Assembly (NCBI GenBank): GCA_905178155.1
Contig: CAJINV010000002.1
Coordinates: 208,354 to 272,353 of the forward strand
From: Amoebophrya sp. A120
Taxonomy: Eukaryota; Protista; Dinoflagellata
Direction of reading: 5' to 3'
Length of the DNA: 64,000 nucleotides
Shown: positions 1-62,995 of the stretch, in pieces
Numbering within the stretch: the first letter of the stretch is position 1
Layout of the letters: every line of letters begins with the position of its first letter
Program-made: the position numbers and the translations under genes
The notes under the pieces: model-generated
Databases searched by the model: none
Seen by the model: the letters and a program-made list of their open reading frames with translations, nothing else
What the model was told of the DNA's origin: nothing

Positions 1-3000
1 TGCAAGATTGCTGCCTGACTCAGAGGACCAGCACTAGCTGAGGACGAATTCTGTCGCGGTTCTTGCGGTCTTGATCTTTGTGTTTCTGAGGAGGTGCTGT
101 TGTTTCCATTTTTACTGCAGTTATTTGTAGTTCCTGCTGTTTGTAGTTGACCAGCAACAGAAGTACAAGTAGAGGAGGAAGATGAAGCTGCTCCTGCTGC
201 AGCGTTTCTGCTGTTTCCTGTTGAAGGGCCTCCAACAACCCCAGGGGATGAGAGAACTACTGCAGGGGCGTTCGCGTTGTTCGCCAGCACGACGTTACTA
301 GCATTCGGATTCGCCGGTCGCGGCGGCTGCGCCATAGAACTCCCCGCCGGGAGAGCTGTTGCGGCCGTAGGAGCTCCCCGTGTCGTTGTACTACCCGCCG
401 GTCGTGTAGTAGGCGCCGCAGTTGTAGTAGAGATCATCGGCCGGGGGTACACAGATGAGGGTAAAGCACCACTGTTGCTTATCCTGAGTAAAAACGTACC
501 CACACCAGAGTCAAGATGGGGACTTTGCAACAGAAGCCTAGAACTTTTGGGGGTCACGCATCACAAATTGCAGTCCGTAGTGTAGTGCAGGTTCGCAAGG
601 CCAGCTGCATCAGAAATCGATCTGCTCATCCTGTTTACAGCATTACAAATTCCAAAACACGACTAAAAATGCCTCTCCTGGCGATGCGCATTACAAATGT
701 TCCTGTCATTGCAAATCTGCATGACAACTCTGGTGTGGGTAGGTTTTTGCTCAGGATATTGCTCGACGTAACAGGACCACGAGTAACAACACCCGTGTTA
801 CAACTTCCCGTCAACGAGGAAAGGCTAGTACTTCCTGGGGGGCCGAAGATACTGGTGTTCGGGAAAGTGGTCTTGCTCAAGGGAGCAAAGATGTTGCAGC
901 TCACGGGAGCAGGAGCCGCGGCGGCAGTGCCAGCGCCGGTTGATGTCGACGTCCTGGAAGTAGCAGTAGACGCAGCTGCTGCTGCAGTAACAGAAGTTGT
1001 ACCGAGATTATTGGCCGGCCTTCTACTTACGTTCCGCGAACAAGAAGTCCTATTCGACGGCGACCGGGCGGGAGACCGGTCCAGGGCAGACCCCGGGGCG
1101 TAATTCGGGCTGTCGAAATAGGTGGCGAGCTTTTGCGAGGGAGGCTGGGGGGCTTGAACTTGGGGCCCGGAGGCGGAGGCGGTGGTCCTGGTGTCAACAA
1201 CAACAGGATTTGTGGCAATATTGTTGTTCGCTGTTGCCGTGGATGTGCTGGAAGAAGGTGCGGGGGCCACGACGGCTGCTGCTTCATCTGTAGTGGGTGG
1301 TCGTGCAGGATGGGGAACAGTAGTGTCGTGCCCACCTTCGTCATTCGGGGCTGTTTCAGTGGTGTTCGAGCTCGTCGCTGTATTTGCGCTTGCCTCGTTC
1401 ATCGCGGTAGAGGGAGCGGAAGCTGTCTGTCGTGATGCTGTACTATTCGAGTCAACTAGTACATTTGTGGCATCATCATCTACCTTCGCAGCAGAAGACG
1501 CTGCAGGACCTCCTGCAGCACTAGCTGTCGCGACGTCAGCACAACTTCTTGCCCCGGTTTTGGCCTCAGTTGTGGAGGACGTGATCGCGTCTGGTTGAGA
1601 AGTTCTAACCGAAAATGGTCCAGCACTATTCACGCCCGGGGGAGGAGTATCAAATGTAAAAATGTCTGGGTCTGGAAGATTCTGAGATTTGTCATGCATG
1701 TTTTGCATGACCCAGGATGTCTGTAATGCACGGCCGCGCATCACAGATTTTGAGAGGGCTTCCTGATGCCTACTCCGCATGGCAAACGCCCTCCCCGCGT
1801 AGCACAAACTAGACTCCTCTTGCTGGTAATGCAATACAGATTTTTCTAGAGTCCAAAGTTACCATCACAAGTTCCAATCTTCCAGACCCAGACACTTTTA
1901 CATTTGATAAGGAGCCGCACTGAACAACTCTCTCGTAGAAATCGTCGTGTCTATGTTCATATGCATTGCAAAAGTATCGTATTCGTATAAATGCATTACA
2001 AATTTTCCCAGCATGAGAAATAAAATTTGTATTGCGGATTTACCTTGAGAAAAAGATTTGTAATGCATGACTGCAATACGAGTACGATACTTTTGCACAG
2101 GATAGTTCAGACTCGGCACCAGTCCGAAAACGTTTGTGGGCGAGGTTCTGCTCTGGGTCGTGGTGCCTAAAAGAGGACCCACGACCGCAGATGTTGGTGA
2201 TGGTGTCATGGTACTACTAGCGCCGGTATGTATTGCACCAGTAGTTGCACCAGCCGGAAGTAAGACTCTCCTCGACAGTGGCGTGATGATTTCGGCTTGT
2301 CTCTGGGCCGTTGCCGTTCCATTTGCATGCCCGTGCTCCTGAGAGGTAATACTAATAGCTGCACTTGCCTCCTGAAGATCTTCTTCCTTGTCATCTTCAG
2401 CTGGTTTCGATCTATTTTCCGCGTTCGTCTCATCTCGAACAGGTGGAGAAACGACCCCTACAGTGGTCCTTTCATCTGCGAGCGGCAGGACAAGATCGGG
2501 TTGTAGTTCATCTCTGTCTTCCACCGCTGCGGAGGGGCTGCGGGTTTGTTGTTGTTCAGGAGGCAAATGACCATTTCTGCCCGCGCCGCGACTAGTATTT
2601 TCAAGAGTTGTTCCAGAGCAGCGACGAGAAGACCTCAAAGTAGAAGATCGGGGCACGTTTGATACCTGCGCGGACGACCCGTTCCTATCATTGTGCGTTG
2701 GACTTCTTCTCTCGTCCCCGGCAGTTGTTCCGGGGCCCTGTTCGTCGGCTTTATCCTCGTTGTTTTCCGCGTCATTCTTTTCATCTCCTGCTTGATGTTC
2801 TTCAACAGGAGACACGATTCTAACATCATTGTCGCTTTCCCGATAAGTATCTCGACGTTTCCTTCTTCGCTTGTTCGTCCTTCTGGGGGGGAGGAGGTCT
2901 TCTTGCTGTTCAACTAGTACTGGCTCGTTGCAGCTACCGCCAGATCGCCTTCCCTCCTCTCGTCGTCCCTGTTTCCTGCTCTTGTTTTTCCAAAACTTCT

Positions 3001-6000
3001 GCCGTAAATTTCTTCGAGGGCGGGACTGCGGGGGCCTGGGGTTGTCGTCGTCAGGCTCCGCGCCGTTGTAGGAACCTGTTTTATGTATTGCGGATGAATC
3101 GTGTAGCATGACGTAGAACTTGCATCGCAATTTTTTTCAAACCTCAAAATAGGGAAGTGGTGCTTGTCATGCAAAATCAGGTAAAGATGAATCACGTGTG
3201 GGTCTGTCATGCTATGTAAGAGACTGATATAACTACGACAACTATGTTGATTATGATACAAGAACCTTTTCTTGACGCTAAATACCTGCTCTGGAGCTGC
3301 GAGAAGAAGACATCGATCGCGACGAACGGTTGCTCTTCCGCTGACTACATTCCCGCCGAGGCCCGCTCTCTTCTTGTCCACGTTTATCAGAGCCACCACC
3401 AGACTGCTGGAAATTCGAGCCGCTTATCAAATGCAAAAATGTCTGGGTCTGGAAGATTCCGGGATTTGTGATGCATATTTTGTATGATCCATGACGCATG
3501 TAATGCATGATCTAGCAGCACAAATTTTTAGAGGGCTTCCTGATGCCTTTTCTGCATGAGAAATGCCTTCTCCGCGTAACACAAGCCGGACTCCTGTTGC
3601 TGGTCACGCAATACAGATTTTCTTGGAATCCAAAGACAGCATGACAAGTTGCAATTTTCCAGACCCAGACATTTTTGCAATCCATACCGCTTGACCGCAC
3701 ACCACGACGCCCAGGAGATCGCCCGTATCCTGTGCAAAAGTATCGTATTTGTATATTAATGCAAGTCTTGCATTACAAATCTTTGTCTTAAGGTAAATCC
3801 GCATTACAAATTTTTTTTCTCATGCTGAGAAAATTTGTAATGCATTTATACGAGTACGATACTTTTGCAATCCATAGCCCGCGTGGTGGTTCAAAACTGC
3901 TTGCTTCCGATCGAGAACGACACGACCTGGAAGCCCTCCTGCTCCCAGAAGATGAAGGGGCTGCGCGCGAGCTATGACCCGATCCAACATATGCATTGCA
4001 AATATGTCTGGGTCTGGAAACTTGTGATGCAGGTTTGCGGATCACAAGGAGCAACCTCCAATTATATGGGGACACGCATGACCACAAGTTTTGGTTTTCG
4101 GGCGACTAGGTCTTGCATAAACTGCACGAGAAACTGCGCTTTTCGAATTACAAAAAAGCAGCGCGGTAGCGCAACATGCATCACAGATCTTTCTCTCCTG
4201 TTAGCGGAGCATTACAAGTCTTGCACGATCCCAGACCCAGACATATTTGCATTTGATACGACAGACGAAGCCGCAAATCGGGATGATGATCTTCCTGACT
4301 CAACAGAATATGGAGTTCTCAAATGTTACATTCTCAACTGTTACATGATTTGTCATGCAAAACTCTCATCAGTATCTACATCATCAAGCTGCTTCGCATG
4401 ACAAATTTCCGAAGGGCTACACAGCATCTAAATCTGTGTCAAACCTGTGATGCAAAAAGCGAAATCTTGCCCCTTGCACTTTTGCCATTCTTGCATTACA
4501 AATTCATGTAACAGTTCAGAATGTAACATTTGAGAACGCCATACAGAACCAGACCTCCTGCTTCGGCAGCTGCTGCTTCGGTCAGCACTGCATTGATCTT
4601 CGTCAACATGAGAGTTGTTGTCTTCTGCTTTTCTCCTCCGGTAGCTGCTGTACCGACCACTGGTGTCTACTTCCTCCTCCTCCTCGTAAGGAACCACCAC
4701 CGCCGCCGCGCTCCTGCCACGCCTGTGTTTTTTTCGAGAATCTTCACTGTCGCAGGAATTATAGGATTCGTTCCCGTAGGAGAATGAGCGGTCGTGGGCA
4801 CGATTTTTTTGTTGACCTGCTCTGTTTACTCGTTTAACGCGAGATCTCTTCCATTTCACCTGCGATCTGGCTCGGGAAGGCGTGCGAGAAGATAAGGATG
4901 ACCGGCTTGTCCTGGAATTACGAACTCTGCATCTGCTGGGGCTTCCATTGCCACTTCTGCTACTACCAGCATCGTCGTCAGCATCATTCGCCGAAGAGCT
5001 GAAACGGCCTTCTTGACTGATGTTCTCGTCCCTACTCTCATTGTCTTCGCGTTCTTCGCACCATCGGCGGTTTGTTTCCCGCTTGTTCTTTCGCCTAAGA
5101 TTCTTGCGCTTGTTGTGTTTCTTTCTTTCGAAAGCCTCGACGCAGCTTGAATGACTGCTAGAAGTGAAGCTTCCATGTTGTGCACCTCCAGCAGCACTCC
5201 TTTCCCTTCGTTCCTGCCTCTCCTTCTTTTTTTCTTCCCGCTGCAGCCTGTCCGCCCGTCGCAAAGCCTGCCTCGCTTCCATTTTCAGTTTGTAACTCGG
5301 CAACTCCCGGTAGTCCGCGGGGCAGGATTTGGCGTTTCGCTTGGTCGGCTGCCAGTCGTGGTCTAATCGGTAATATTCTCCCGCGCGCCAACCCAGTGCC
5401 CGGCAGTATTTGAAAGGTTTTTTTTTCGGATCCTTCACTGCGTCCTGCAGCATGCCGCAGTGCTCTTGCGTCAAATTGTCGAAAATCTGGATTTTCATTC
5501 TCAACTGTTCCTCTGTGATGGTTTTCGCGGTAGTCTTGATGCTGGTGGTGTTGATCTGCGACGCGGATGCATTTGCATTTCCGCTTCCACCAGTGCGACC
5601 CTCCTGCTCCTCCCTCATTTTCTGGGCCAACATGGTCGCAAACGCCTGCGACCCCATCTGAATCGCCAGAGGCACGGAGGGGGTCATGGGGCAAATCGAG
5701 GTCGCCTTCCCCAGCGGTTGCGTGTGAAGCAGCATGTTCCCCTTGGGGTACAGGGAAATGTGTTCGGCCAGGCAGCCCTCCCAAACGTCTCCGAACGGTT
5801 GAGATGAACCGAATAAGCCACGGAGTGTTGGGTAGGGTGGATCATCGTGTAGTTCCACCGCCTCGTCTTTATGGTCTGTCGCTGCGGATGAACAATCCTC
5901 ATCTGCAGCTGTCCGTACTTCTGGAGGGAGGAGAAGTTCTGTGTTGCTCGGTCGTGTTTCTACTGTAGTTTCAGCACGACAAGTTTCGTTTGCTTCATCT

Positions 6001-9000
6001 CCTTGTACCACAGCCGACGGGGCAGGAGGTGCGGACTGTTGGTCTTCGTGCGGAGTAGATCCTGCTTGTTCCGCCGCTGGTTCCTGCAAAGTTGTTGCTG
6101 GTTCTGGCGGCACTGGTTCCTGCGGAGGCGCTGGTGTTTGCGGAGATCCTAGTACATCTTCCGGCACTGGTTCCTGCGGAGATGGAGATGCTGGCCCTTC
6201 TTCCGGCGGGTGCTCAACATCTTGCGGACGTTCTACTGCCTCTACTTCATACTCTTTTGACCTTATCACACAGAAAAAAGCTGGCAGGGCATATTTGTAA
6301 TGCAAAAATAAATACACAAAACAGCATGCTAGGAGGCCACCCATGACAAAATTTTGTGTGTATATATTTTTGCATCACAAATATGCCCTGCCAGCTTTTT
6401 TCTCTGGGATAGACCTCTCCTCCGTCTTGTGCACGAGTTCGTCCTTCAAGCTCGGCCTCCTATGCATTGCAAAAGTATCGCACTAGTAGAAATGCAATAC
6501 AAATGTCCTTAGCATGAGAAATGGAATTTGTCATGCAGATTGGCCTTAATAAAAAGATTTGTATATGCAAGACTTGCATTTATACGAGTACGATACTTGT
6601 TTTGCACAGGATACCTCCCCTGCAGCATCAATTGCGTGATTTCGTGGAACGTCGGGTACGCAAAATACCGGGGCGCCGTATCCACCACGTCGTTAAACAA
6701 ATCCGATAGGTAGGCTTCTTCGCCACAAGCCACATCGTACCCCTGCCTCGCGGCGTTATCGTCTAGTTTTGGGTTCCGCATCAAATTTTCGTCAAAGTGG
6801 GAAAACCCCATCAAAAGGCCTAAGACCGTCGGGTGGAGGACGTCGTTATTATGCTTTTGTAATGCCGCGAGAATGTCCGGACAATATTTTTCCCCGACGA
6901 GATTGATGTGCTTCACGACCGCCTGGGCCATAAGCGCGCCGATCTCCCCATATCAAGTGCAAAAGTGTCTGGGTCTGGAACGGTGTAAACTTGTCATGCA
7001 GATGCTCCATAACCCATGAGGTCTGGAATGCGGGGCTTAGCATGACAGACTCTGCGAGGTAACTGCCATGCCTGTCCTGCATGAGAAACTTCCTTCCAAC
7101 TTGGTCAAAAGTGGGCAGCTTTTGGCACTCATGCAACACAGATTTTTGCATGCTTCAGATTTACCATGACAAGTTGCCGCCTTCCAGACATCCAGGGATA
7201 TTTGCAATTGATACCCCATCGTCGCCAAACATGTTTTTGTCGTTCCTTAACAAGACGGAAGTTAAGCAGCTGTAGAAAATTTTCACGTAGCCCGCGTTCC
7301 AGGGGTATCCTGAGTAAAAACGTACCCACACCAGAGTCAGGATGAGGATTTTGCAACACAAACCTAGGAGTTTTGTGAGTCACGCATGACAAGTTGCACT
7401 ATGCAGTGTAGTGCAGGTTAGCAAGTGCAGCCGCATCACAGACTCATCTGCTCATCCTGTTCACAACATCACAAATTCCAAAACACAATAGGAAATGGAT
7501 CTCATGGGGATGCGCATTACAAGTCTTCCTGTCTTTGCAAATCTGCATTACAACTCTGGTGTGGGTACGTTTTTACTCAGGATAAGGGGACCGTGTCAAT
7601 CATGTCCTGCGCCCGCTGTTTCAATTTCTCCGGCAGATCCGGCCACAACCGGAACATGACCTCCTTGTCAAAGGTGGCCAGATTCATCACTCCGCCGTGA
7701 AACCGCTGGCATTCCAGCACTTCCTCATACGTCCGTGGGTCTTCTGGGTCGTCGCCAAGCGCGGCGTATGACAGTGCACAACTCCCGATCCCCCTCATTT
7801 GTCATGCAAAACCCCGACTCCAAGCGCTGCTCTGTGGTATCGTTTGCATGACAGATTCCGGAAGCCCAAACAGTACTACGTACAACAGGCGCATGCAGTT
7901 GTCATGCACAGGCTCCACAGGTGGGGGTGTTTGTATTGCTGTTCATGCAACGCAAGTGAGGCGGGAGGGGGAGTTGTGCACTGTCATACAGCGTGCCACA
8001 GTGTCATATAATGCCGCTCGAATTCCACGGAGTGCCTCTTGTCGACTTTTCGGCAGTCGATTAGCATTGCGAGGGCCTTTCTGTCTTCCCAGAGGCTGAT
8101 TTCCAATTGCGTGAAATTTCTGGTAGGGAGTTGTGGGAGGTCCTGACGTTGTTCAACATTGGGAAGAACATTTTCTTCTTCTTCATCTTCTTCTTCTGGA
8201 ACCGTAGGAAGCTGCTGCTGCAGAACCAGGGTAGTTGTACTAGCAGCTGTCGAGGCAGATGATGGAGCGGAATAAATTCTGGAAGAAGTAGTAGACGACG
8301 CGCTGGGTGGTTCTATTTCGTGGCTCATGTCGTCTTCGTCAGTGCGAGTAGCAGTACCAGCATGATCGTCGTCGTGGTCCGGAGCTGCACTAGTAGCGTT
8401 AGCGTCACGTGCCGCTACAATTTCCTGCGCAGTGGGAGCGGGATGAACTGTGGGAGGTCGTGGGGGCGGATTGGTCGTTTGATGTTCCGGCATTGATGTT
8501 GTTCCTTCTGGAAGAAGATGCTGAACCGCTGCAGCGACACGTCGTTCCTCTTGCCGCTCCGCAGCTATATCTGCTTCGATGAATATGGATGTGTCAGGAT
8601 TGAAATCGACAAAGTTGAAATAGTTTGTCATGCATAAAATGCAGCCCACAATAAAGTGCCTGTCTTCCAGAGTAGGCAAGTGAGGCAGATTGCAAGCCTG
8701 CTAAGGGGTAGAACCTGAGCTGCTCAAGTAACATGGCAAAAGGCGTCTTCCTTACCCAAACAGCGCGACAAACTGGATTTCACTTCTACCCAAATTTGCC
8801 TTGCGCCACTTGCAAACTGGGCCACGACTGTTATCCATTTTGTGCATCACAAACTATTTCACCTTTGACGATTTCAATCCTGACACATCCATATCAACCG
8901 CGGTCCGGGACGCCTCGGCCCAGGCCCTCCCGTGACGTGCCATGTACTCTTCAATATCCGCAACCACGGATATTTCCAGTTCCTCCTCGGAGCGAGAGCG

Positions 9001-12000
9001 CGTCAGATCTTGTTCGATGAACTCTTATGCATTTTTGCAAATGTGTCTGGGACTGGGTCTGGAAGTAGAATGCAAGTTTGTCATGCTTGTCTGGGGCGGT
9101 GACTCTTAAATCTGTCATGCACGTTACCCAAGAAGAGCCCCATTGTTCTGTCATGCAGAGACGCAATTTCTCATGCAGAATAGAAGGGAACACCTAGAAG
9201 TAGCTCAGAAACTTTTCATGCTCAGCCAGCACTTGTGGCCTCCTCCTGATATTACGCCACTCAGCATCACAAGTTCTTTCCAGACCCAGACATATTTGCA
9301 GTTCATAACTCTGCATATCCCGCGGCCCGGGCCTCTTCGGCCCAGGCCTCCCCCTGCGCTAAGCCCTCTTCCAACTCAACTACGGATATTTCCAGTGCCT
9401 CGGCTACGGATTTCTCCAGTTCCTCATCGGAGGTACTAGAGCGACCCATATCTGCTTCGATGAACTCTTGCTATGCAGTGCAAAGACATCGCACTCGTAT
9501 AAATGCATTACGAAGTAGTTTCTCAGCATGAGAAATAAAATTTGTAATGCTGATCTACCTCAAGAAAAAGATTTGGAATGCATGATTGCAATACGAGTAC
9601 GATACTTTTGCAGAGGGTAGTACTTGCGGGGTATCAACAACAACGACATCAGGTTCGACGTTTTCCTGCTCCTCTTGCTCGTCCCGTTCCCCTTCCTCGC
9701 TTTGGTTTTGTTCGTCCTCATCACTACACGACCCTCTCCTGCACGTGTTGGTCTGTCGCCGTTTCCGGGACGTAGTAGTAGCAGCTTGTCCTGAAGTGGT
9801 AGTAGTCGGGAGTTGTTGGCCTTGTTGATGTAATATGGAGGGTTGTGGTTGATGTGCAGAAGAAGATGAAGAAGAAGATGAGGGCTCTTGCTGTGCCTGT
9901 GCTGAAGATGTAGTACTAGTTCCTGTTGTTGGCAATGGAGCTGCTGTCGCTGTTGTAGCTGCTGGTGCCGATTCTCCTAGTTGTGCAGCTTCTTGATGTA
10001 GTGGTTGTAGCTGTTGTACTGGTGCTTCTTGTAGTAGTACTTCTTGTTGTTCCACTTCCTCTTGTACGCCTTTGGCATCCGGAAGACCGTCTAGCGCAGC
10101 CGTTGATGGAGAATTTTCCGCTCCTTCGTGCTGGTGGGAACCTGCGGTCGTTGCTATTTGGCCGGGTAGTTCCTTGTCGGCTGCAAGTTCTTCCTGCCTC
10201 GCGGCCACCTTCACGAGGGTCTCCGTCATGACCCGCACGATGGCGAGCACCCGGTCATCGTGCCGGGACAATGGCCCTGACACCATCGTCCCTTCTGCCT
10301 CGGAAGCTGGTGCGCAGCTGTGTTGTACTTCGTTTGCATCGTCTTCTTGTTGTGCTTCTTCTTGTTGTGCTTCTTCTTCTTCTACTTCTTCTCGCAGGTG
10401 GCCTTCTTGTTGTACAACTTCTTCTACTTGTGCTTGTTCCTCGGGTTCATCATCCTTCATGTTGTTCTGCTCCCCAGGAGCATCTTCAACCTGCTCCTGC
10501 TCTCCCTCTCCTGACACCAACGTAGCTGGCTGTATATGCACTGCAGAAGTATCATACTCGTAGTCATTGGAATTGCAATACAAATTGAAATTCGACGGCC
10601 AGCATGACAAATGGAGTGTGTCATGCTGATTTGCCTCGGGAACGGGATTTCCATTTGTGGTGCATGGCAGCTGCAAGAATTTTTACGTACGAGTATCAGA
10701 TACTAGACTTTTGCAGTGGATATTCATCCTCCTTCAGTTCGTCCTTGTGGCAAATCAGGTCGAAAGTTTATCAAATGCAAAGATGTCTGAGTCTGGAAGG
10801 ATGCAACTTGTGATGCTATCTTGGGATTCGAAAAAAACCTGTATTGCATGACAGGCAAGAGGAGTCCAGTTTGTGCTACGCGGCGAGGGCATTTCTCATG
10901 CGGAAGAGGCATCAGAAAGCACTCTAAAAATTTGCGATGCTAGGTCATGCATTACAGGCGTCACGGGTCGTGCCAAATATGCATGACAAACCTGGCAATC
11001 TTCCAGACCGAGACATATTTGCAGTTGATAAGGTTCTCCCGGTAGCATCTCTGACCGTCGCAAAGACCACCGTGTCCGGGCTGTTCGGGTCGAGGGTAGT
11101 TGTACTGGTGTTCGTGTTCGTACTCGCCCCGTTTTCTTGATGCAGTGACGATCCTGATCCAGCTGTCGCTGTATGAAGATTGTTGTCCTGCTCTTGGCGT
11201 TGTAGGCTACTGGTCCTCGAGGTAAGATCTGTATGGATTGCAAATATGTCTGGGTCTGGAAACTTGTAATGCTAAAAGTGAATGGTAGGCGCACTGCAAG
11301 AATACGCAGCTACGCAGGACAAATTTTTTGGCTCCCATGTCTTACGTATTCCGCATGGCAAACTGCGTTTTTGCATGACAGGTAAAAAGGCCTTTTCGTG
11401 CCTATGCAACACAGATACACGAGTCATGCCAGACAAGCATGACAAACTTGCATTCTTCCAGACCCAGACATTTTTGCATTTGATAATCTGGTTGGCGAGG
11501 CATCTTCGTCAAAATCTCGCTCATTTCTTCCTCATCAATGTCCACGAACATGTGGTCTTCCGTATGCAACACAAATCTCCCGTACACGCACAAAACGCAT
11601 CACAGACTTCGCCGTAAGCTTAGAGCTTGTCATGCTGACATAGAACTGCAGATAAAGTTTGTGATGCAGCAGTCGCATTTTCCTGTCGTGTGGTGGGAAT
11701 TTGCTGTGGATATTCGGCAAGTGGTGGAAGGACGACGGGGCGAACCTGCTCCAAACTCGGCCGCTCCCTCATCAGGGTGGGAGGGTCGTTACTGGTTCGT
11801 TGTTCCCTTGGTCTTGATGTTCTTTCCTCGCCATCCGCATGATGTTCTTGTTCTCGACAGGTTTCTTGCTCCTGGTGATCCTTGATTTCCGTCGACTTGC
11901 TAATATCACGGCTGTTGCCCTCGTCGGAGGCAGTTGTGAGTAGCGAGGGAAGCTGCTGCTGCGGCTGTTGCTGTTCCACCGGTCGTTCTGGAGGACGAGC

Positions 12001-15000
12001 ACCACGAGGACCATTCGTATTTGCTGCAGAAGATGAGGAGGAGGAGGAGGAGGAGACTGAAACACGACCCGTACCAGTTCCTGCAGCCGTTTCTTTTTCT
12101 CCATTTAATATCGTAGATGAAGAAGAAGAAGCTCTTGCACTTGTACTACAACTATCAGGAGCTACAATTGTCTCCACCCCGAACTTGTGTCTCAATTCCA
12201 TAAGACGAAAGAAATCCTTCTCGTCCAAGGAAACGCTCAGCCCAGTTCCACACTCGGACTCGTGCACGTTAAAGTTCACCGGCGCCCTATCCTGTGTAAA
12301 AACGTCCCGACCCCATAGCCAAGATGGCAAATCTGCTAGACAAATCTGCAAGCTTTGGCTGGTGCGCATGACAAGCTTGGCATCGTAGTGTAATCCTGTT
12401 TAGCTAGGTCAGCAGCATCACAGATCTACCTTGTTATGCTGATTGGAGAATGGCAAACTCCGACACACGGCTAGAAAATGCTTCTCACGGGGCTCCGCAT
12501 GAGAAATGTTTTCAACATGCAGATTTGCATTACAACTATGGGGTGGAGGCGTTTTTACAGAGGATACGCCCCTGCCGGGCCCACCTCTTTTCCATCCTTG
12601 TTCAATGGCTGCAGGGACAAAACATCGCCTATCGCAAGGAAAAATCCCCCCTCCCCATATTGAAGAGGTAGGTTTTCGAAAATTTGTGTTGCTGCTTTGA
12701 GGTCACAAATCGCGTTTGTGTTGCAAGAAGACAAAGGCAGCAGCTTCCGTCCCATTATGGAGGCGGTTTGTCATGCTGTTGAGCCAACATCACGGACGCT
12801 TTTCATGCTAAGCGCCTAAGTCAGAGCCTCTCTACTCAGGCTTGATATGGGTCTGCAGTCCTCTCCAGCAAGACATATGCGATTTGTGTACTCAAATACA
12901 GCAACACAAATTTCGCTTTCGATATGGGGAGGGGGGATTATTCCTCACAATATCGCCTTTAGTGTAACTGTCCGGTGGGGGCATATTAACCCAGAAGTCG
13001 AAGCCAGTGCCGTCACCAGGCTCGACCCTGATGCTAACGCAGTCTATTTTTGGAGGTGTAGAAGTCTCCTCGTTTTTAGTTCTATCTTCACTTGCAGGGG
13101 ATGAGGATGAAGAAGATGGTGCTGTTCTTTCAGGTCCACCAGAAACCGGCTGCTCTCCCGCAGTAGTTTCAACACCGTCTCTTTGTGCAGAAGCAGTGCC
13201 AGCAGCTGCGCCAGCGGAAGTATGCGTAGTTGGAGGTGCACGACCAGAGGTTTCGTTTTCACCAGGCTGCAGGTTCTTGTTGTTATCGCCGGGGGTCGTG
13301 GTAGTTGTACCGCGAGATGTTGACCGGCCCTCCGTTTTTTCTTCTCCCTCCACATTGCAGAACTCCTCGACCGAGAGCAGCCTCGTGCCCGCTCTCGTGG
13401 ACGTCCCTGTGGCCGTCGTGCTTTCGATGTTGGAACTACCTTCGTTGTTCTGCTGATTTAGATTTGCATTTTGATTTTGATTTTCGTTTTGATTTTCCTT
13501 TTGCTGTTTCTGTTCCTGTTCTCGCAAGGGTATTATGGATTGCAAAAATGTCTGGGTCTGGACGATTGCCAGATTTTGTCATGCAGGTTTTCCATGGCCC
13601 ATGAGGTCTGGTATGTGGGACATAGCATGACAGATTCTGCGAGACCTTTCTCATGCCTATCCTGCATGAGAAACTGCCTCTCGATTAGGTCAAAAGTGGA
13701 CAGCTTTTGGTAAACACGCAGCACAGATTTTTGCATGCTTCAGATTTAGCATAACAAGTTGCATTCTTCCAGACCCAGACATGTTTACATTTGATAGATA
13801 TCACCTCCTTCCGGATTTTCACCACCTCGGCCGGATTCCGCACCAGTTTAAACTGCTTTCCCCGCACCGATATCAAATGCAAAAATGTCTGGGCCTGGAA
13901 ACTTGTCATGCTGAATTGGCGAGACTGAAATACTTTCCAATGCAGCCAAGCATGACAATTTTGCAGAGCACTTTCTCACGCGCACTCCGCATGAGAAACA
14001 GGGCTTTTGTATGACAAAAACGCGCACACTCTTGCTAGTCATGCAATACAGATTTTACAGGAGTGTAGGGCTAGCATTACAAGTTCCATATTTCCAGACC
14101 CAGACATATTTGCAATGCATAATCGAAATCGCCCACACCCCCGCGGAGAGCCCGAGCCGCGCACGGAAACGGTTGAGCCCTGTCTTGAAGTTTTCCGGTT
14201 TATTGTCGGAGATCAAAACTTCGCTCGGGAAGATTTTGCTCAGAATCGTGTAGCTGTCAGTTGTCTTGTTGTATTCCTCGACCTTCATCCCCCGGACGGT
14301 TCCCAGCTCCGCGTATTCCTCCTCAATGGCCTGCTTTCCGATTACAAAACTGGCATACGCAGTGCCGAAGGGCAGGCGGGGTACGGGTCGTCTGCGGCGT
14401 GGTGGAGGTGCGGGGCGTGGTTCTCGCACCTCGTCCTGCTTGTCTTATGCATTGCAAAAGTATCGTACTCTAGTATAAAATGCATTACAAATTTTGCCAG
14501 CAGGAGAAATAAAGTCTGTCATGCAAATTTACCTTTAAGGAAATGGAAAACATTTGTAATGCATGACTGCAATTACTACGAGTACGATACTTTTGCACAG
14601 GATATGTCTTTGTCTTTGTCTCCACCCTCGGTGGACGTCGGGCTCCTCGTTGACCCTTCATTATCAACGCTTTTGCCGCCGTTGTCTTCAACGTCGACCT
14701 GCTCGCGCTCGGTGGAGGGTGAAGATGGAGCAGCGCCGCTATTTGCTGCATTCTCCCCGTCCACTTGTTGAACTTGTACTTGATCATCGCATTTGTCTTT
14801 ATTTTCTCCATCATTTTCCTCTGCTTTCTCTTCAAAAAGCTTTTCAATTGCCGGCGGGTTTTTGCATTCGAAGCTCCCGTTCACAATCCGGTCTCGGTTT
14901 GCGTCGTAGTAGTCGTAAAAGGCCTTCGTCCAGGCCAGGTTTATCTCTTCCTGTGTCTGGTGTCCGCGTGGTCGCCTCCGTGTCTGTGTCTGTCCCTCCT

Positions 15001-41700: not shown

Positions 41701-42118
41701 CAAACTTGTAATGCAAAAGGCGCAATCTTCCTTCTTTCACTTTTGCCAGTCTTGCATTACAAACTCATGTAACAGTTGAGAATGTAACATTTGAGAAGCG
41801 GTACGCTTGAACCGGAGTTGCCGTTGATTAAAGCCTATGAACTGCAAAAGTATCGTACTCGTATAAATGCATTACAAATTTTCTCAGCATGAGAAATAAA
41901 ATTTGTAATGCTGATTTGCCTTGACAAAGAAATTTGTAATGCAAGACCTGCATTTATACGAGTACGATACTTTTGCAATGCATAAAGCCAGGAGAAGTTG
42001 TATTTATTTTCAAATCGGACCTCCACCTCCACGACGAGCAGTTCGAGGTCGGACCAACACCAACTTGCGTCGGATGAACCACGACATTGGCGGCCCGGTG
42101 TGAAACAAGCGCGTTCAT
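29295..42118 (-). CDS. Gene 3: helical-repeat protein with C-terminal RAP-like domain (organellar RNA-binding type), 23 introns; start uncertain
   Basis: Junctions checked join in frame. LLTGSAAFRERVLRMYGFEVEY resembles the RAP C-terminal motif. Helical-repeat-like segments (DDYARLARGFAQLGYPSRDFF, LLCDLMISCANLGMK, VVSSIAVKADYYEPELFQKV). Basic N-terminus. Confidence 0.7.
30142..30324. mobile_element. Introner family C, degenerate
   Basis: TIR, TSD GGTAG/GATAG. Confidence 0.87.
30808..31066. mobile_element. Introner family B
   Basis: TIR, TSD GTGCA/GTGCA. Confidence 0.9.
31404..31553. mobile_element. Introner family C
   Basis: TIR, TSD TCGAA/TCGAA. Confidence 0.9.
32783..33054. mobile_element. 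Introner family B
   Basis: TIR, TSD AGGCA/AGGCA. Confidence 0.9.
33115..35004. mobile_element. Introner family A expanded to 1.89 kb by a nested insertion
   Basis: TATCCTGTGTAAAAAC ... GTTTTTACACCGGATA, TSD TTCGT/TTCGT; removal joins ADYYE-PELFQK in frame. Confidence 0.88.
33325..34935. mobile_element. Degenerate hAT-like non-autonomous DNA element nested in an introner
   Basis: 8-bp TSD CATGCGTG (33317-33324, 34936-34943), CAG...CTG termini, imperfect ~22-bp TIR; no transposase recognised. Confidence 0.72.
35249..35472. mobile_element. Introner family F
   Basis: TIR, TSD GCACT/GAACT. Confidence 0.9.
35528..35834. mobile_element. Introner family G
   Basis: TIR, TSD AGGCG/AGGCG. Confidence 0.92.
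35972..36110. mobile_element. Introner family C
   Basis: TIR, TSD AATTG/CATTG. Confidence 0.88.
36457..36764. mobile_element. Introner family H-like
   Basis: TATTACAACGAAAGATGCC...GGCATTTTTCACTGTAATA, TSD CGAGA/CGAGA. Confidence 0.87.
36811..36959. mobile_element. Introner family C
   Basis: TIR, TSD TTGTA/TTGTA. Confidence 0.92.
37180..37360. mobile_element. Introner family C, degenerate
   Basis: Degenerate TIR, TSD GGTAC/AGTGC. Confidence 0.8.
37838..37992. mobile_element. Introner family C
   Basis: TIR, TSD TGGTT/TGGTT. Confidence 0.92.
38198..38407. mobile_element. Introner family D (opposite orientation to 4309)
   Basis: TIR, TSD GAACA/GAACA. Confidence 0.9.
38618..38767. mobile_element. 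Introner family C
   Basis: TIR, TSD CGGCG/CGGCG. Confidence 0.92.
38809..39092. mobile_element. Introner family A
   Basis: TIR, TSD ACCAG/ACCAG. Confidence 0.9.
39190..39498. mobile_element. Introner family H
   Basis: TIR, TSD TGATC/TGATG. Confidence 0.88.
39795..40047. mobile_element. Introner family B
   Basis: TIR, TSD AGATG/AGATG. Confidence 0.92.
40260..40413. mobile_element. Introner family C
   Basis: TIR, TSD CGTGT/CGTGT. Confidence 0.9.
40476..40763. mobile_element. Introner family A, degenerate
   Basis: Imperfect TIR, TSD TTTGA/CTTGA. Confidence 0.85.
40802..41111. mobile_element. Introner family G
   Basis: TIR, TSD CAGCT/CAGCT. Confidence 0.92.
41194..41498. mobile_element. Introner family G
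   Basis: TIR, TSD CGCCA/AGCCA. Confidence 0.9.
41569..41803. mobile_element. Introner family D at an exon-duplication junction
   Basis: Family D TIR, right tip altered (GAGAAGCGGTA), no matching TSD; element+5 nt keeps frame. Confidence 0.85.
41836..41984. mobile_element. Introner family C
   Basis: TIR, TSD AAGCC/AAGCC. Confidence 0.92.
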
Positions 42119-54809: not shown

Positions 54810-57800
54810 CTAATCTGAGTGAGCCCCTACTATCCCCACCATTTTCCAGTGGTTGATCCCGTTGTGCCAGAGACGAATGCATTCGCGGTCCTGATCACAC
54901 GACGATGTACCACGTTGTTGTAGTTCGAGTTCCTCTCGTCCCGCTTCTCCTCCTCCGACCTGCAGGTTCGGAAAGCTCTGCATGCTGTATATTGTGAGGA
55001 ATAATCCCCCCTCCCCATATCGAAAGCGAAATTTGTGTTGCTGTATTTGAGTACACAAATCGCATTTGTCCTGCTGGAGAGGACTGCAGACCCATATCAA
55101 GCCTGAGTAGAGAGGCTCTGACTTAGGCGCTTAGCACGAAAAGCGTCCGTGATGTTGGCTCAACAGCATGACGAACCGCCTCCATAATGGGACGGAAGCT
55201 GCTGCCCTCGTCTTCTTGCAACACAAACGCGATTTGTGACCTCAAATCAGCAACACAAATTTTCGAAAACCTACCTCTTCAATATGGGGAGGGGGGATTT
55301 TTCCTTGCGATATTGTAAAAGTTTCGGTGGATCGGCTCGTAGTCTCCCGGCTCTTGCACCGCTTCCCCACCGCCGTCTTCGTGCTGCATATACAAGTGTA
55401 CAACTCCCCCTCCCCCTCATTTGTATGGCATGAAGAGCAATACAAACACCAGCGCACATGGAGCCGATGCATGACAAATCCATGTTTTTCCTAATGTAGT
55501 GCTGTTTGGGCTTCCGGAATTTGTCATGCATAATAGTGACGCAAGGGAGCAACTGGAATTGTGAATTTTGCATGAGAAATGAGAACGAGGGGGAGTTGTG
55601 CACTGTCGTATTGCAGAAGGTCCCTGGCGAAGGCGTACACCTCGATCGGCAGGCCCAACACGTGGGACAGCGCTTCGATCTCGTTGTCGCCGGAAAAGAC
55701 GCCCGGCTTGGCCAGCTCGTTCAAAATTTGTTTGTCCGTGCTGTCGGCTCCCAGCCGCAGTTCCATCTGAAAGTCCCGACGGTACGTCGCCCCGTGGGCG
55801 TGGGGGCTCACTTCGTCCAGCCTCGTGGCGAACCAGTCGCGGACCGCTTTGCGCAGGCTTCTTGGGGTAGGAGGTGGAGCACGAGCAGGAGCACGAGCAC
55901 CACCACCACGTCGGGCGACAGTATTGTCATTTCCTGGGAACAACGAGGAGGACATGATGATTTGGTCTTGATCGCCACCACCGGTAGCAATCCTCTTCCG
56001 CTGTTGCAGAGCGCGCAAATTCGCGATCACAGCGTGGTAGAGACAATCGCCGTCTCCAGGGACGTTGACTGTGTAGATGGATCTGTTCTTTTGCACGTCC
56101 AATACACGCCGCCGACCGGGTCGTGGTCTTTGTTCAAGAACATGATCCACAGGGTAGCGGCTTTTTCCACTGCTAGTGCTACTCCTGTCTTCAGAGATGA
56201 ATAAATCTTCGACTGTGTCCACCCCTGTCACCCGGTTTCCCGGTCGGATACTGCGCTGAAAAGCGACAAGCTCTTCCTGGGCCGCCCGGGATGAAGCAGC
56301 AGATGAGGTTCTGGAAGATACCCCCGTGGAGGTTCTTGCCGCACTTCTTAGGGATACAGCTACCTCACTGCTCCTTGCCGATACATCCGAGGGCACATGA
56401 CTGTCGGCCGAGCCGAACGGCGTTTCTGGTAAAAATATTCTTGTTGCAGGACGATTCCACGCCGAAACTGAATGCTCGTACTTGTTCTTCTCAGCATAAA
56501 ACATTAAATCTTGCTTCTTTTTTATCCTGAGTAAAAACGTACCCACACCAGAGTCAGGATGGGGATTTTGCAACACAAACCGAGGAGTTTTGTGAGTCAC
56601 GCATGACAAGTTGCGCTCTGCAGTGTAGTGCAGGTTAGCAAGTGCAGCCGCATCACAGATTCATCTGCTCATCCTGTTCACAGCATCACAAATTCCAAAA
56701 CACGATTCAAAATTGCTCTCATGGTGATGCGCATTACAAGTCTTCCTGTCTTTGCAAATCTGCACTACAACTCTGGTGTGGGTACGTTTTTCCTCAGGAT
56801 ATTTTTCACCCGTTGCAGCTGAAACAGAAAATATTTCTCGTTCCCCCGCAGATGCGTTTGCCCGCGTACCTTCTTGCGCACCGGAATTATGTTGTTGTCG
56901 GGACGAACATCAAAGGACGAGCTCTTGCGATTTCCGTTTCTACCACCTCTCGGTCGCGATGGAGACGACCTTCGACCACGGGTGGATGGGCGCGAGCAGC
57001 CTGAATAAACATTATTTGTGGTTCCTCGCGCCGCGACGACGGCGTATCGAAAGAAAAAAGTTCGTCACGATCACTCATGGGCATTTTTGCAATACAGAAA
57101 ATGCCTGGCATGCGTAGAAATGCATCACAGGCAAACAACATACGGGATTTCTCTTAGTGTTTCTGCAATACAAGATGAAGCTGTGACGCTAAAAAAATCT
57201 GTAATGCAAAACCTCCAAGTTAGTGACTGTGACAAACTTTTTTCTCTCCATACGGCGGAGGGGAGTTGTAGTCGTCCTCGTCCTCTCGGCTTAGAAGTTG
57301 TTGTACTGGTGTTCAGATTAATACGCCTCCTCATCGTCCTATCAAATGTAAAAATGTCTGGGTCTGGAAATTTGTGATGCTGTGTGGCATATCATGAGGA
57401 GGCCACAGTTGCTGGCTCAGCATGACAAGTTTCTGAGCTTCTAGGTCGTGTTACCTATTCTGCATGACAAACTACGTTTCTGCATGACAGAAAAGTGGGG
57501 GTCTTTGGCGATGTGCATGACAGATTTAAGAGTCATGCCAGACAAGCATGACAAACTTGCATTTTTCCAGACCCAGACATTTTTACACTTGATACATCCT
57601 TTCGCGTGGTGGTCCACCACCTCCTGCTCCACCGACCGGCGCGGAATAGCTCCGAGGACGGGTTGTAGTAGTTGTTGCGAAGCCCGCTTTGGCTTTGCTT
57701 GAGAATAAATTGCTGGCTTTGGCTTTGGCTTTGACCGCAGGACGAGCCACAGCTGCGGGAAAATTCTCCTTAGCAGTCTGCGGTGGCAGCACCGGCATGG

Positions 57801-59364
57801 AACAAGTTGTGCGATTTATCATACCGGAATAAGGAGTACATTCTTTTTCTTGCACGGCTACTTGTGTCGATGTCGGGGCGCAAATATCACAGGTTGAACT
57901 TGAGTTTGTCCTCTGCTGGATCTCTCCCCGCGCGGAGTGGGAGTAGTTGGCGCTAGAAGTGCGACCTTGTTGCAACGACCCTGCTTCTTGGGGGTCGACG
58001 CGACCACGGGAAAGTATGGCGTTCTCGAGAAGAGTTGAGAACGTCATAGAAAGTTCTTCCATTTCGCATCCGCTTTGTTGTTCCAGCTCAGACGACGGTA
58101 CAGCTGTAGAAGGTGTGTCCTCGTCGTCCTCAGCACAATTATAAACATGTCCGGGTGACGGTGGTCTGGTTTTCACGCGCTCCAGCCTCGCTTTTGTGAA
58201 CTTCCTGTTCCTTGGTCGTGCGCAAGGACCTGCCCACGTTGTCCTTGCGCTAGTTGTGTGAAGATCGTCATCCGCCGGCGACAAAATACCAAATGGAAAT
58301 GGCACGTCGACACTAGCTGGTGCACTATCGCCACTGCTGTTCGTAGCAGCTCTGTTGTTCCACCGGGGGCGCAGCAACCCTTCAATAACCTCCTTTGACG
58401 GCGGCCCGAGGTCGCAGAGGGGCGGGTCAAAATAAACACCAGTATCGGCTTTCGGTATTGATTTCCCTCTGGCAGTAGAGTCCCCTCGTGCGTCGTGGGT
58501 TCCAACTTTATTTGGTCCTCGCGCATCATGTTGCCCCATGTTGGCTCCTGCTTTCCTGGGTCCTCGTGCACCACCGGCACTCCGTTTAGCAGTGGCAATA
58601 GCAGCAGGCTGTATCCCAGGACGAGTAGGTTTTCGCGGCTGCGCCGTGCCCGTAACTATATTCGGGCAGCTGCAGTTCGCCCCTTTCTTTGCAAGGGAAG
58701 GTGGAGCAGGTCCTGCTCCGCCAGACGTTCGGGTGGTCCCTGTCTTTCCTGCAAGATTTTTTGGCTTCGTACTCGTACTGCTCCCATTCTTCTGGCCCCC
58801 GCCCAAACAGCTAGAGTGGCTCTTGTTCCACTTCCTCCACACGGTTTTGAAATAGCCTACCCAGGAGCCGAACCAATTTCGAAGCCACGCGACGGTCGTG
58901 CTGTGGCTCTTGCTTGTCGTGGTAGTCTTCTTGTTGCCGGAGGTCACTGTCGTAGTTTCTGACCTGCTGGTGGTGCTGAAGGTAGTTCTTGCTTTGATGC
59001 CCGTGTTCCTCTTGTCGAAAGCTGCACTAGTACCACCATCTTCCGGCAATTTCTCATCTGCACCAGCTGGCCTGATAACTGTCGGAGGTGGCAGAAGGGC
59101 GGGGGCAACAGAGGTGAACGTGTTCGTATTTCTGGTCTCGGCAAAAACAACGGAGAGGTTGGAAGTTGTTGTACTATATACGGCCAGAAACAGAGCGGCG
59201 AAATAGGAACGTGACGTCCCGAAGCCGCAACAGCGCGATGGGAAGTCAACGCTGTTTCTTCTTCCCATCGACATGAGCAACATCTCCCCCCTGCGTGAAG
59301 ATGATTTGGCGGACTCAAGATGTTGAACCTGGCGCTGTTTCAGTCGCAGAGGTGCCAGACCCAT
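54810..59364 (-). CDS. Gene 5: OTU-family cysteine protease (deubiquitinase) with a long disordered N-terminal region, 5 introns
   Basis: VPGDGDCLYHAV (Asp/Cys), SGDNEIEALSHVLGLPIEVY and IRLWHNGINHW (His) are brought together by removing introners; all 5 junctions in frame. Confidence 0.85.
54990..55312. mobile_element. Introner family H (inverted near-identical copy of 12630-12952)
   Basis: TIR, TSD CTGTA/TTGTA. Confidence 0.93.
55389..55610. mobile_element. Introner family F
   Basis: Imperfect TIR, TSD CTGCA/TTGCA. Confidence 0.87.
56523..56801. mobile_element. Introner family A
   Basis: TIR, TSD TTTTT/TTTTT; very similar to 7306-7584. Confidence 0.92.
57045..57252. mobile_element. Introner family I (TIR TATCGAAAGAAAAAAGTTCGTCAC)
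   Basis: TIR, TSD CGGCG/CGGCG; frame restored. Confidence 0.88.
57340..57594. mobile_element. Introner family B
   Basis: TIR, TSD CGTCC/CATCC. Confidence 0.9.
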
Positions 59365-60536
59365 TTTTTCTTTCCCTCTCGCTTTCAGTATTTTTCTCTT
59401 TTGGTCGTAATGTTACTACTTATTTTCTAGTTGATGTACCAATTTACTTTCTATGAATTATACAAGTTGAGGCCAATCTACTTCTTCGTTCTGAACTAAG
59501 CGTGTCGACGACAAATAAACCTCCATTTACTGACAAGGCCAACATCATCTTACTTTTCCATTCGATGAAACGCAGTGCCGATAAATCTACTGAAGCTCAT
59601 CGACTCAAGAAGACGAGCAGACAAATTTTACACATACTAGGTCAACCTGACCTGCCGCTGTTTTTTTTTTTTTCGGGAAGGGGAATGGATAAAGCGGATA
59701 CTTATCGGCATGGAATGAGCTGCGCGATTTTTCGGAACAAGCAAGTAGCCTAGATTTCTACAGGTGGATTCTTGGGAAGAGAGATGCACGATCTTCTTGT
59801 TCTGCAGACGTTTTCATTTTCATCGCCAACTGATCTCTTGGTGTCAGACACTGATGGATTGTCGCTTTCAGGTGGTGGATCCTTTTGGTGATAGATCGTT
59901 TCTTTTTCGGAAAATAAAAAAGGAAACTTGCAGCCTCGGCTGCGATGCCATGATCTCCGCGACTAATTTTTCTTGCAAACTACACGCAACCCACAGGCCG
60001 GAATTCGTTCTAGTCCCTCAGCGTTAAATAATGATGATCTGATGATCTTCGAGGTACGTTTTGAACACGTAAGAGTCAGATACTGGGTCCCCCGGGAAAA
60101 AACTCGCGGTGTTATTTTTGCTCATCTTGAGCCAAAGGCTCACAAAAGTTACAGTGTGTTTGTCTTGCGTGTTCTGGCTTCCAGGGACTATCTAATTGTG
60201 TTTTTCATGTTCCGGAAAAAACTTTCTCGTGCAAAGAAATACGAATCTGTGATGCGTCTTCGCGATATTGCGACGCAAGAGAAAAAACTTCACTACGAGA
60301 AAAAAGTAGTCACAAAAAACACAGACAGTGATCACGTGCACCGATCCGAGGTGAGAGTGAACAACACCCCTCCTCAAACTGGTACTAGATCGACAATCTG
60401 CGTGGTGTCTGTGTATCTACTATGGAAGATATGCCACCTCGCGCTGCTCTGTCGATTGAACTGGTTTGTGAAAAGAAACACTACTATGCTACTAGTACTA
60501 CTTATTTGCCCCATGTTATATTTTACTGGTGCTCTT

Positions 60537-61415: not shown

Positions 61416-61451
61416 TCATCATCATCATCATCATCATCTTCTTCTTCTTCT
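61416..61451. repeat. Compound (ATC)n(TTC)n microsatellite
   Basis: Seen directly. Confidence 0.8.
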
Positions 61452-61709: not shown

Positions 61710-62995
61710 CTACGGCACGGCGCGCAGTGCGTTTTTCCAGGCCTTTTTCGTCCTGGCGACGTGCAACATGAACTGCGCCGCACGACCTCCGTCGAAAGCG
61801 TTGGCGCGTATGATTTCCTTCGCCGTGTCCAGTGCGGCCAGGTACCGCTCCTGGCTCGCCTGCCCCTGCCCCACCATGGTTTCGATTCCGCCCGCAATCG
61901 AGGTCGCCTGCAGTGCGTCCGGCCCCGGGTCCGGCTCGGTCTCACGGGGGTCGACGCGACCGATCCCCACATAAACGCCGACGTTAGCGCGGCTGATGGC
62001 CACTGCATTCGTACGCTGTTCGGGCTGGAAGGGAAGTGCGACCACCGGCACCCGGGCCTGCATCGCTTCGCCCAGGCTCGAAACGCCACAGGAGGAAGCG
62101 AAGACCAGGCGGCGTTGGGCACCAAAGTAGCAGAGCAAAGCGGTCTGGTCGATGCTGTTGCGCTCGAGTCGGATGAAGGGCGGCAAAGCCGATGCGGGTA
62201 CAACATCTTTCTTTAAGCTCAGGCGGAGTACCACGTAGTACTTGGCAGGGCCGAGGTGCGAAAGGTCGGCCACGATGTTGTCAAACACCTGTTTTTCCAC
62301 GTGGTAAAGCGTCCCGAGCGACAAATACACGATCTGCCGGCCCCCCGCCGCGGCTTCCAAGGATTGCAGAAAAAGCTGCGTCGTGTTGTCGGGGCTGGTA
62401 TAGGAAGTTATCTTGGTTCTGTCCGTAGGGCAAAAGCCGGTTTCCTCCTGTCCGGAAACCATCAACGCGGCAACGGGGGCTTCATTCGAAAAAACGCCTT
62501 CATCCTTAGCTAGAAAGGGAGCTGCAGGCGGGGATCTAGTGTTTCCGCTCGCGCCGCGGATGGGAAACACGCGACCCACGAAAATTTCTGCACCCTGGAG
62601 GTGTTCCTGTGAAGAAGAAGATGCTGAGGATATCATTTGTAAAAACGTCCCCAACCCAGAGTTGCAATGCAAATCTGCATGCTGAAAATGTTTCTCATGC
62701 GGAGACCCATCAGAAGCAATGTCTGATCGTGTTTCGGAATGTTCATGCTCCAATCAGCATGACGTGCGAGCTCTGTGATGCTGCTCTGCTAGCTAAACAG
62801 GATTACGCTACTAGAGCACGCCTGTCATGCGAAAGCACCAAAGCTGGCTGATTTGTCTAGCAGATTTCCCATCTTGACTCTGGTGTGGAAAGTTTTTACT
62901 CAGCATAGGGGACCGTCCTGCAGCCGTGGAGCAAGTAGCGGCAGAAGTGGTCTGAAGCCCCGGATCTTCGGTAGTTCCTGAGCTGTAGAGCTCCG
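61710..62995 (-). CDS. Gene 6: UDP-glycosyltransferase (GT1) 3' part; 5' end beyond the window
   Basis: IVYLSLGTL and DQTALL...FASSCGVSSLGEAMQARVPVVALPFQPEQRTNA (UGT signature region); exons join across introner 62631. Confidence 0.85.
62631..62907. mobile_element. Introner family A
   Basis: Imperfect TIR, TSD GAGGA/GGGGA. Confidence 0.87.

Follow-up and report, generated by a model that had tools for sequence, protein, structure and literature searches.

In this work we analysed a 64,000-nt stretch of the dinoflagellate Amoebophrya sp. A120 (contig CAJINV010000002.1, forward-strand positions 208,354 to 272,353; hereafter the window, numbered from its first letter), in which 65 complete inverted-repeat elements of the form TAT…ATA and one truncated copy are found. 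Elements of this kind, each with 5 nt, are removed without GT-AG ends from a transcript-like contig and are kept in DNA-like contigs. According to our preferred reading, to which we assign a probability of roughly 0.55, a relaxed U2-type spliceosome assisted by the element hairpin takes the elements out of the pre-mRNA by reading their own ends. The phenomenon as such is already known, and what is added here is a candidate splicing code consisting of one register and named positions.

Four sequencing runs were compared with positions 1-17800 of the window, hence with one gene: X1, which is DNA-like, X3, which is probably RNA-derived, and X9 and X10, which are raw RNA. In X3, the exons are covered piecewise by a single contig of 14,785 nt (record 9, depth 111, minus strand), whose start at 17570 precedes the first ATG by about 140 nt and which lacks 26 elements and a 210-nt GT-AG intron alike. 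Eight pieces of this contig were examined, and the removals were checked as sums over groups of 1, 2, 9, 3, 5, 4 and 2 elements, most of them not singly. Its coordinates fit removal of the element plus 5 nt at all eight testable positions, across the 26 elements and the 210-nt intron, as a preliminary description of this DNA had predicted for transcript gaps. Cuts at nearby GT-AG sites were considered as well; in-frame joins within 12 nt exist for some elements, but no matching shift is seen in the sums of the X3 contig. In X1, 8/8 contigs among the matches listed (depth 42-49, 0 differences) read from exon into elements and two of them cross whole elements (10535 and 11563); joined rows in this run are cross-matches between element copies and were excluded. 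X9 and X10 gave 5 and 3 reads matching this region, which probably come from another strain and are uninformative.

The reading frames are compatible with the same length. All long frames lie on the minus strand, and removal of the element plus 5 nt opens an open reading frame (ORF) of 2,972 codons spanning 24 elements. Removal of 3, 4, 6 or 7 additional nt fragments this ORF and 8 nt breaks it, while 2 nt leaves it equally open; hence the frame alone gives the removed length only modulo 3. Removal of the element plus 2 nt, although compatible with the frame, is ruled out by the coordinate arithmetic of the RNA contig, which fits only 5 nt. When two GT-AG introns (3076-3285 and 36226-36349) are also removed, the frames reach 3,762, 1,985, 1,096 and 1,066 codons, so the restoration of frame by deleting the element plus 5 nt, claimed in the preliminary description, holds over long ORFs. 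The first host gene (3..17723, minus strand), with its 27 elements and single GT-AG intron, has no stop in 3,762 codons, the first ATG lying near 17432. The three others, all on the minus strand and known from the frame only, are a 1,985-codon gene at 29298..42355 with 23 elements and one GT-AG intron, a 1,066-codon gene at 20151..24066 with three elements, and a 1,096-codon gene at 54813..59412 with five elements and an OTU-like protease domain. This domain is matched by Pfam PF02338 (E 3e-9) on 55524-56660, and two OTU box words, which we take to be the Cys box and the His box, join into one 1,096-codon frame once the five elements are removed; at the level of the reading frame this bears out the earlier claim that deletion assembles the OTU catalytic motifs.

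Within the window 63 of the 65 elements are inside ORF spans (p 7e-13); these spans add up to 27.2 kb and other sequence to 19.8 kb. The sole elements outside long ORFs, at 45031-45179 and 51530-51679, both carry perfect target-site duplications (TSDs); if they are spliced in untranslated regions, removal would be automatic and not selected for coding.

In order to place the cut, the behaviour of the aligner has to be taken into account. Ambiguous bases are assigned to the upstream piece (as seen at 15191, 4543 and 3073), so that the cut can be located at junctions with unequal flanks. One register fits all five such junctions: in transcript sense the intron is N-TAT…ATA-NNNN, beginning 1 nt before TAT and ending 4 nt after ATA. 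Three of these introns, all five being on the minus strand, have no direct repeat in register. For intron 8580..8894 (ends AT..CA) the contig retains N5' (8579) and not N4' (8580), which pins the cut exactly; for intron 9468..9620 (ends CT..AA, 5' triplet TAC) it retains 9621 and not 9620; and for intron 10531..10723 (ends AT..CA) it resumes at 10530, that is at N5'. The two others, 16676..16835 and 7763..7989, have one TSD mismatch at N4, and the contig retains the upstream N4; the former, a reversed copy of the most abundant family (family 0), is resolved singly as element plus 5 nt. Thus the junctions of the elements at 9472, 10535 and 8584 take the downstream N5' and those at 16680 and 7767 the upstream N4. 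Since three of the five junctions have no direct repeat in register, this repeat is a relic of insertion and not a cutting signal. Furthermore, the register follows the transcript and not the element, because family 0 fits it whichever way a copy is oriented; were the register bound to the element, the cut at 16680 would be expected after base 1-2, which is not what the contig shows. From these five junctions in one contig we infer that all elements share the register.

In the fitted register, positions +2 and +3 are U and A in 65/65 elements while +1 is free (G19 A18 T17 C11), and no bias is seen at exon position +1. The triplet at +2 to +4 is TAT in 61/65 elements and TAC in 4/65. The register thus sets the U and A of the terminal inverted repeat (TIR) at +2 and +3, as in a canonical GUA donor, and both canonical introns of the window begin with GTAT. 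The elements themselves do not carry canonical U2-type GT/GC-AG ends (GT-AG in 1/65, AG in 5/65). Sliding the cut within the flanks makes GT-AG reachable in 3/65 elements (6264, 6461 and 9472), which agrees with the earlier statement that sliding fails in most cases, and in the fitted register GT-AG occurs only at 6461. The preliminary description had noted that 6461 can be read as GT-AG and ascribed this to chance; the first part stands, but the dinucleotides fall exactly in the fitted register, and we prefer to regard 6461 as the canonical extreme of a continuum, not as noise.

The two canonical introns, both on the minus strand, can be compared with the elements. The intron at 3076..3285 (210 nt) starts with GTAT, ends with ATA-AAACAG and is absent from the RNA contig; it has a weak similarity to an element (E 8e-5) and, judged by its sequence, is probably a decayed one. 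The intron at 36226..36349 (124 nt), which also starts with GTAT, is deduced from the frame only.

The constraint on the ends was examined further with a comparison set of at least 141 loci, 80 of them with full flanks, from one other (metagenome) assembly that holds the same families at best identities of 71-96%; its counts refer to loci among the matches listed. At least 355 TIR-defined copies are found there in 404 kb of partly overlapping loci, and such an element density in a public metagenome assembly indicates that the lineage is present in environmental data. Among elements with 0-1 TSD mismatch, 72 cases are clear and 80 unclear, and 5 nt gives the best frame in 58 of the clear ones; with three or more mismatches the sample is small (2/4 clear cases, 12 unclear). 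Five of 210 oriented elements are GT-AG in the fitted register. An end-symmetric detector gave 317 elements in this assembly, 270 of them orientable, which together with the 65 of the window makes 335. Variants among these number 2 at +2, 2 at +3, 14 at +4, 2 at -7, 4 at -6 and 4 at -5. At all these end positions but +4 they are depleted relative to the 5% TSD mismatch rate, which is an upper bound as either copy can change. Position +4 differs from its pairing partner -7 (14 vs 2, p = 0.004; 10 vs 2, p = 0.039 in the other assembly alone). The end constraint is therefore polar to the transcript and not purely one of pairing, because +4 varies and its mirror A-7 does not; a reader of pairing only, or a two-fold symmetric reader of DNA, would not predict this asymmetry.

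A skew in TSD mismatches was considered separately and dropped as evidence. Of the 18 single mismatches in the window, 16 lie at TSD positions 4-5, counted in transcript sense, and third codon positions account for 9 of these 16; the other assembly, with 26 at positions 1-2 and 25 at positions 4-5, did not reproduce the skew. The strand caller used for this check was correct in 55/58 held-out window cases, and a cruder caller gave 14 vs 22 (p 0.24).

Regarding structure, the ends pair in the predicted minimum free energy structure of 61/63 introns of up to 400 nt, with example folding z-scores of -9.8 and -3.7. TIR positions 4-7 are often unpaired (paired in 118-206 of 335), giving a predicted 3-bp terminal stem followed by an internal loop. 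Furthermore, A is found at TIR positions 11-13 in 286, 302 and 311 of the 335 elements.

In the mechanism we propose, a DDE/integrase-type transposase acting in trans would produce the 5-bp duplications. The TIR would then provide U+2 and A+3 of a donor site that can do without G+1, the long TIR hairpin would join the ends, the 3' cut would be measured 4 nt from AUA without any search for AG, and A-7 may act as the branch adenosine. The left duplicate would lose one base and the right duplicate four, always with the intron, and because these bases leave with it a fresh insertion would restore the original mRNA at any target and in either orientation. Stated as a code, to which we give even odds, the machine would work as a ruler: it would ignore G+1, the 3' AG and the direct repeat, read U+2/A+3 and the AUA at -7 to -5, and place its cuts 1 nt ahead of the TIR stem and 4 nt beyond it. 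Such a machine would be either a spliceosome without U1 or a new enzyme, adjusted to the 5-bp stagger of the transposase, any insertion in either orientation would instantly be a silent intron, and the A-7 of the TIR would double as the branch point.

The spliceosome is favoured because the TIR falls on the GUA positions, the GT-AG copies share the register, the 210-nt canonical intron resembles a decayed element and the spliceosome is reported to be near-complete. Indeed, the sections of Farhat 2021 drawn on here (PMC7789003) report U2, U4, U5, U6 and 83 of 89 spliceosomal proteins in Amoebophrya, U1 not being found, and state that 15% of the canonical introns of A120 have the same layout of direct and inverted repeats. 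In the same source the top end motifs of A120 are all NT-NN (Table S4), and strain A25 has TT-NN motifs with inverted repeats starting with TTA, which again gives U+2/A+3. In other lineages, as far as the cited texts go, Stentor introns keep GUA and place their branch A six bases away from the 3' end (PMC9505925), and the non-canonical introns of Fritillaria are reported as spliceosomal in a review.

Several points weigh against a spliceosome. The 3' end, with AG in only 5/65 elements, has no parallel among spliceosomal acceptors; the end dinucleotides of the 210 oriented elements of the other assembly are of 58 kinds, and no U2 branch consensus precedes A-7 (U at -9 in 139/335). The 3' U-6 and A-5 are also conserved in the other assembly, which pairing could explain, and hairpins that pair the ends would, if they form as modelled, hide the U2/U6 pairing sites and suit a structure-specific nuclease equally well. 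The single register comes from five junctions, one contig and one run, read from the piece ends of an aligner, and the RNA status of that run rests on a guess. Because of the TAT..ATA seeding, part of the +2/+3 invariance in the window is a matter of construction, the NT-NN motifs could reflect aligner preference, and Farhat 2021 (PMC7789003), in the sections drawn on here, describes splice sites whose place relative to the hairpin varies. As for the transposase acting in trans, none of the 31 ORFs of the window matches a relevant Pfam family.

The alternative that survives best, which we hold as possible though at odds well below even, is a non-spliceosomal, structure-guided RNA endonuclease that would cleave the TIR hairpin 1 nt ahead of the stem and 4 nt beyond it, with a ligase that joins the exons, as proposed for Euglena. 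Strong end-joining hairpins, a dispensable AG, a free +1 and the functioning of both element orientations all suit such an enzyme, as does the fact that U1 was not detected in Amoebophrya (PMC7789003, in the sections drawn on here). In the Euglena introns, moreover, the overhang of the stem is shorter on the 5' side than on the 3' side (N3 CDG ... CH'G N5-6|R; PMC12501133, for the part cited), and these introns leave as full-length circles according to a review, but their motif is absent from the elements. Furthermore, a nuclease would not account for a register that coincides with the canonical GUA at +2/+3 and is shared by the GT-AG copies, nor for the variation of U+4 beside a constant A-7, although an A-to-G change at -7 would preserve a wobble pair; the frequent lack of pairing at TIR positions 4-7 also speaks against it.

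A further alternative is that a domesticated transposase excises the elements from the DNA at some stage of life and that genes are transcribed from element-free templates; programmed DNA excision was the other branch raised in the preliminary description, by analogy with the internal eliminated sequences (IESs) of ciliates. These are transposon-derived, interrupt coding sequence and are removed precisely, leaving one copy of the flanking repeat; their excision from DNA takes place at TA and is two-fold symmetric. The TIR and TSD anatomy and the loss of exactly one TSD's worth of sequence fit this idea, and rare variants are dropped from Logan contigs and one DNA-like run cannot span all life stages. 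We nevertheless consider it very improbable: the eight DNA-like contigs among the matches listed enter or span the elements, the element-free contig lacks the GT-AG intron too and, like an mRNA, begins a short way before the ATG, and both the register and the end constraint follow the transcript strand. Dinoflagellates are not known to have a separate germline nucleus, and without one excision would be inherited and the elements lost. Slightly less probable still is a cDNA artefact in broken genes, namely the skipping of hairpins between direct repeats by reverse transcriptase known as the 'falsitron' effect: hairpins with short direct repeats are its classic substrate and the sole RNA evidence here is cDNA-derived, but three removed elements have no direct repeat, the 3,762-codon frame requires 28 removals, and 5 nt gives the best frame in most clear cases of the other assembly. 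Cutting of the tRNA type at a bulge-helix-bulge was set aside by reasoning, as direct repeats cannot form the exon-side helix. Hence, of the dedicated non-canonical excision system postulated earlier, the precise non-GT-AG removal stands, while the system need not be dedicated throughout, as the register aligns the TIR with the GUA donor; its DNA branch is disfavoured.

The elements were collected by a scan for TAT…ATA pairs with 5-bp direct repeats, extended by BLAST. Their length ranges from 139 to 1,890 nt (median 249). TSD mismatches of 0, 1, 2 and 4 are found in 42, 18, 1 and 4 elements, so that 60/65 have a 5-bp TSD with 0-1 mismatch, and 63 distinct TSDs among the 65 elements show a fixed length and a variable sequence. 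In shuffled windows TAT…ATA with an exact 5-bp repeat turns up 15-33 times each, against 54 in the real one, and, being frequent by chance, is no evidence by itself; with a TIR of at least 14/25, the same motif occurs 36 times in the window against 0-2 per shuffle (20 shuffles). At the clustering threshold used there are nine multi-copy clusters, each with copies in both orientations relative to the gene, and seven singletons; the earlier estimates of about 67 elements (65 complete ones, the truncated copy and the decayed GT-AG intron) and at least nine families are thus reproduced. The motif TGTVATGC is present in 63/65 copies (183 of its 195 occurrences in the window lie inside elements) and may be a shared transposase-binding site. 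With TIRs, a variable TSD of fixed length and no coding capacity, the elements are, on sequence grounds, likely to be miniature inverted-repeat transposable elements (MITEs) of the A120 introner kind.

Family 0 has 21 copies of about 140-190 nt, 13 in one orientation and 8 in the other: 1960-2104, 3726-3876, 6461-6613, 9472-9619, 10535-10722, 14446-14604, 15199-15347, 16680-16834, 20935-21094, 30142-30324, 31404-31553, 35972-36110, 36811-36959, 37180-37360, 37838-37992, 38618-38767, 40260-40413, 41836-41984, 45031-45179, 46581-46735 and 51530-51679. Family 1 has 10 copies of about 280 nt (6 vs 4 orientations) at 480-758, 7306-7584, 12288-12566, 33115-35004, 38809-39092, 40476-40763, 46011-46540, 48562-48877, 56523-56801 and 62631-62907. 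Two of these are enlarged. The copy at 33115-35004 (1.9 kb) has an insert of about 1.6 kb with an internal repeat of about 50 nt, perfect TSDs and a conserved 5-nt frame of the host gene, its ORFs giving no Pfam match; the copy at 46011-46540 has an insert of about 250 nt with short CCAAC-rich repeats and also keeps the frame with 5 nt. Clusters 2 and 6, with a singleton of the same TIR type, comprise copies of about 250-280 nt at 1648-1909, 3425-3686, 3990-4258, 6951-7213, 9026-9307, 10769-11030, 11232-11485, 13534-13796, 13871-14121, 15402-15650, 30808-31066, 32783-33054, 39795-40047 and 57340-57594. The truncated copy (62996 to about 63218) has this TIR type and is broken off by other repeats, namely a tandem duplication of 92 nt (63281-63481) and, at the window end, a tandem array of 13-nt units.

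Smaller clusters are located at 8584-8893, 35528-35834, 40802-41111 and 41194-41498; at 4309-4543, 38198-38407 and 41569-41803; and at 12630-12952 and 54990-55312. Two further groups of clusters and singletons are at 7767-7988, 23339-23560, 55389-55610 and 35249-35472, and at 22967-23287, 39190-39498 and 36457-36764, and singletons are found at 6264-6411, 11563-11712, 45752-45946 and 57045-57252. Internal coding repeats of two host genes (8584-9619 and 41194-41984) carry elements of different families at near-equivalent positions, which suggests insertion hot spots, and the upstream duplicate at 8584 looks as if it had been lost through a microhomology deletion. Apart from the elements, the stretch 24078-29705 is GC-rich (55-65%) and element-free and contains diverged direct repeats (26378-27031 vs 29065-29705, 79%; 24078-24512 vs 27027-27424, 72%); its ORFs have no Pfam match, and it is possibly another repeat class. 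An ORF at 61710-62753 has a weak UDP-glycosyltransferase match under the cut-off (PF00201, E 0.03) and no homologue at E<=0.001.

The link to the introners reported from Amoebophrya, also drawn earlier, is well founded, the element ends matching the A120 signature. In the sections of Farhat 2021 drawn on here (PMC7789003), A120 introners have inverted repeats that begin with TAT, seven variable bases and three As, direct repeats of 3-5 nt, a mean length of 240 nt and RNA-seq support. The window elements share the TAT-type repeat with about seven variable bases and an A run, the 3-5-nt direct repeats at the borders, the many repeated families of about 240 nt, the hairpin and, for 26 elements of one gene, removal with non-GT-AG ends. 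The same sections describe variable sites without a clear signature, whereas we find one register at five junctions, removal without a direct repeat and a +4 that is relaxed relative to -7; it may be that the register is already contained in the figures of that paper or in Roy et al. 2023. Elsewhere, A120 introners are listed as coming from diverse TIR transposons, one family having integrase-like ORFs (PMC12130899, for the part cited). The excision mechanism is left open in the cited sections of Farhat 2021 and is called unresolved in those of a later review, and no paper resolving it was found in the literature searched, most subscription papers being outside that search.

Other systems, described here from parts of the cited papers, resemble the elements to a different extent. 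The introners of Micromonas, Aureococcus, Symbiodinium and Polarella (PMC9860276, PMC12130899) are likewise TIR/TSD DNA transposons that make introns and leave the mRNA unchanged, but they carry or co-opt GT/GC/GA and AG, while the window elements need neither AG nor G+1 and hence accept any target. Nonconventional introns of euglenids (PMC12501133, PMC11282704) share the absence of GT-AG, the terminal pairing, the TSD-like repeats and spacers of fixed length that separate the stem from the cut, the longer one on the 3' side. They differ by CDG/CH'G motifs, spacers of 3 and 5-6 nt and a purine at exon +1, against UAU/AUA, spacers of 1 and 4 nt and no +1 bias here; their circular excision products have been shown. 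Fritillaria likewise has MITE-derived introns that escape GT-AG genome-wide, with a modified U2 spliceosome implicated (review), yet these keep preferred ends (AG-AC/AT) whereas the end dinucleotides in the window are essentially random. Unlike ciliate IESs, finally, the elements are kept in the DNA contigs and their register is polar to the transcript.

The removal mechanism concerns more than 60% of the introns of this lineage. A fixed register with named positions (+2, +3, -7 to -5 and spacers of 1 and 4 nt) turns 'variable splice sites' into a short testable code, as for Euglena. Furthermore, a ruler-type code would explain how transposons can saturate exons, with 63 of 65 elements in ORFs, without breaking the genes.

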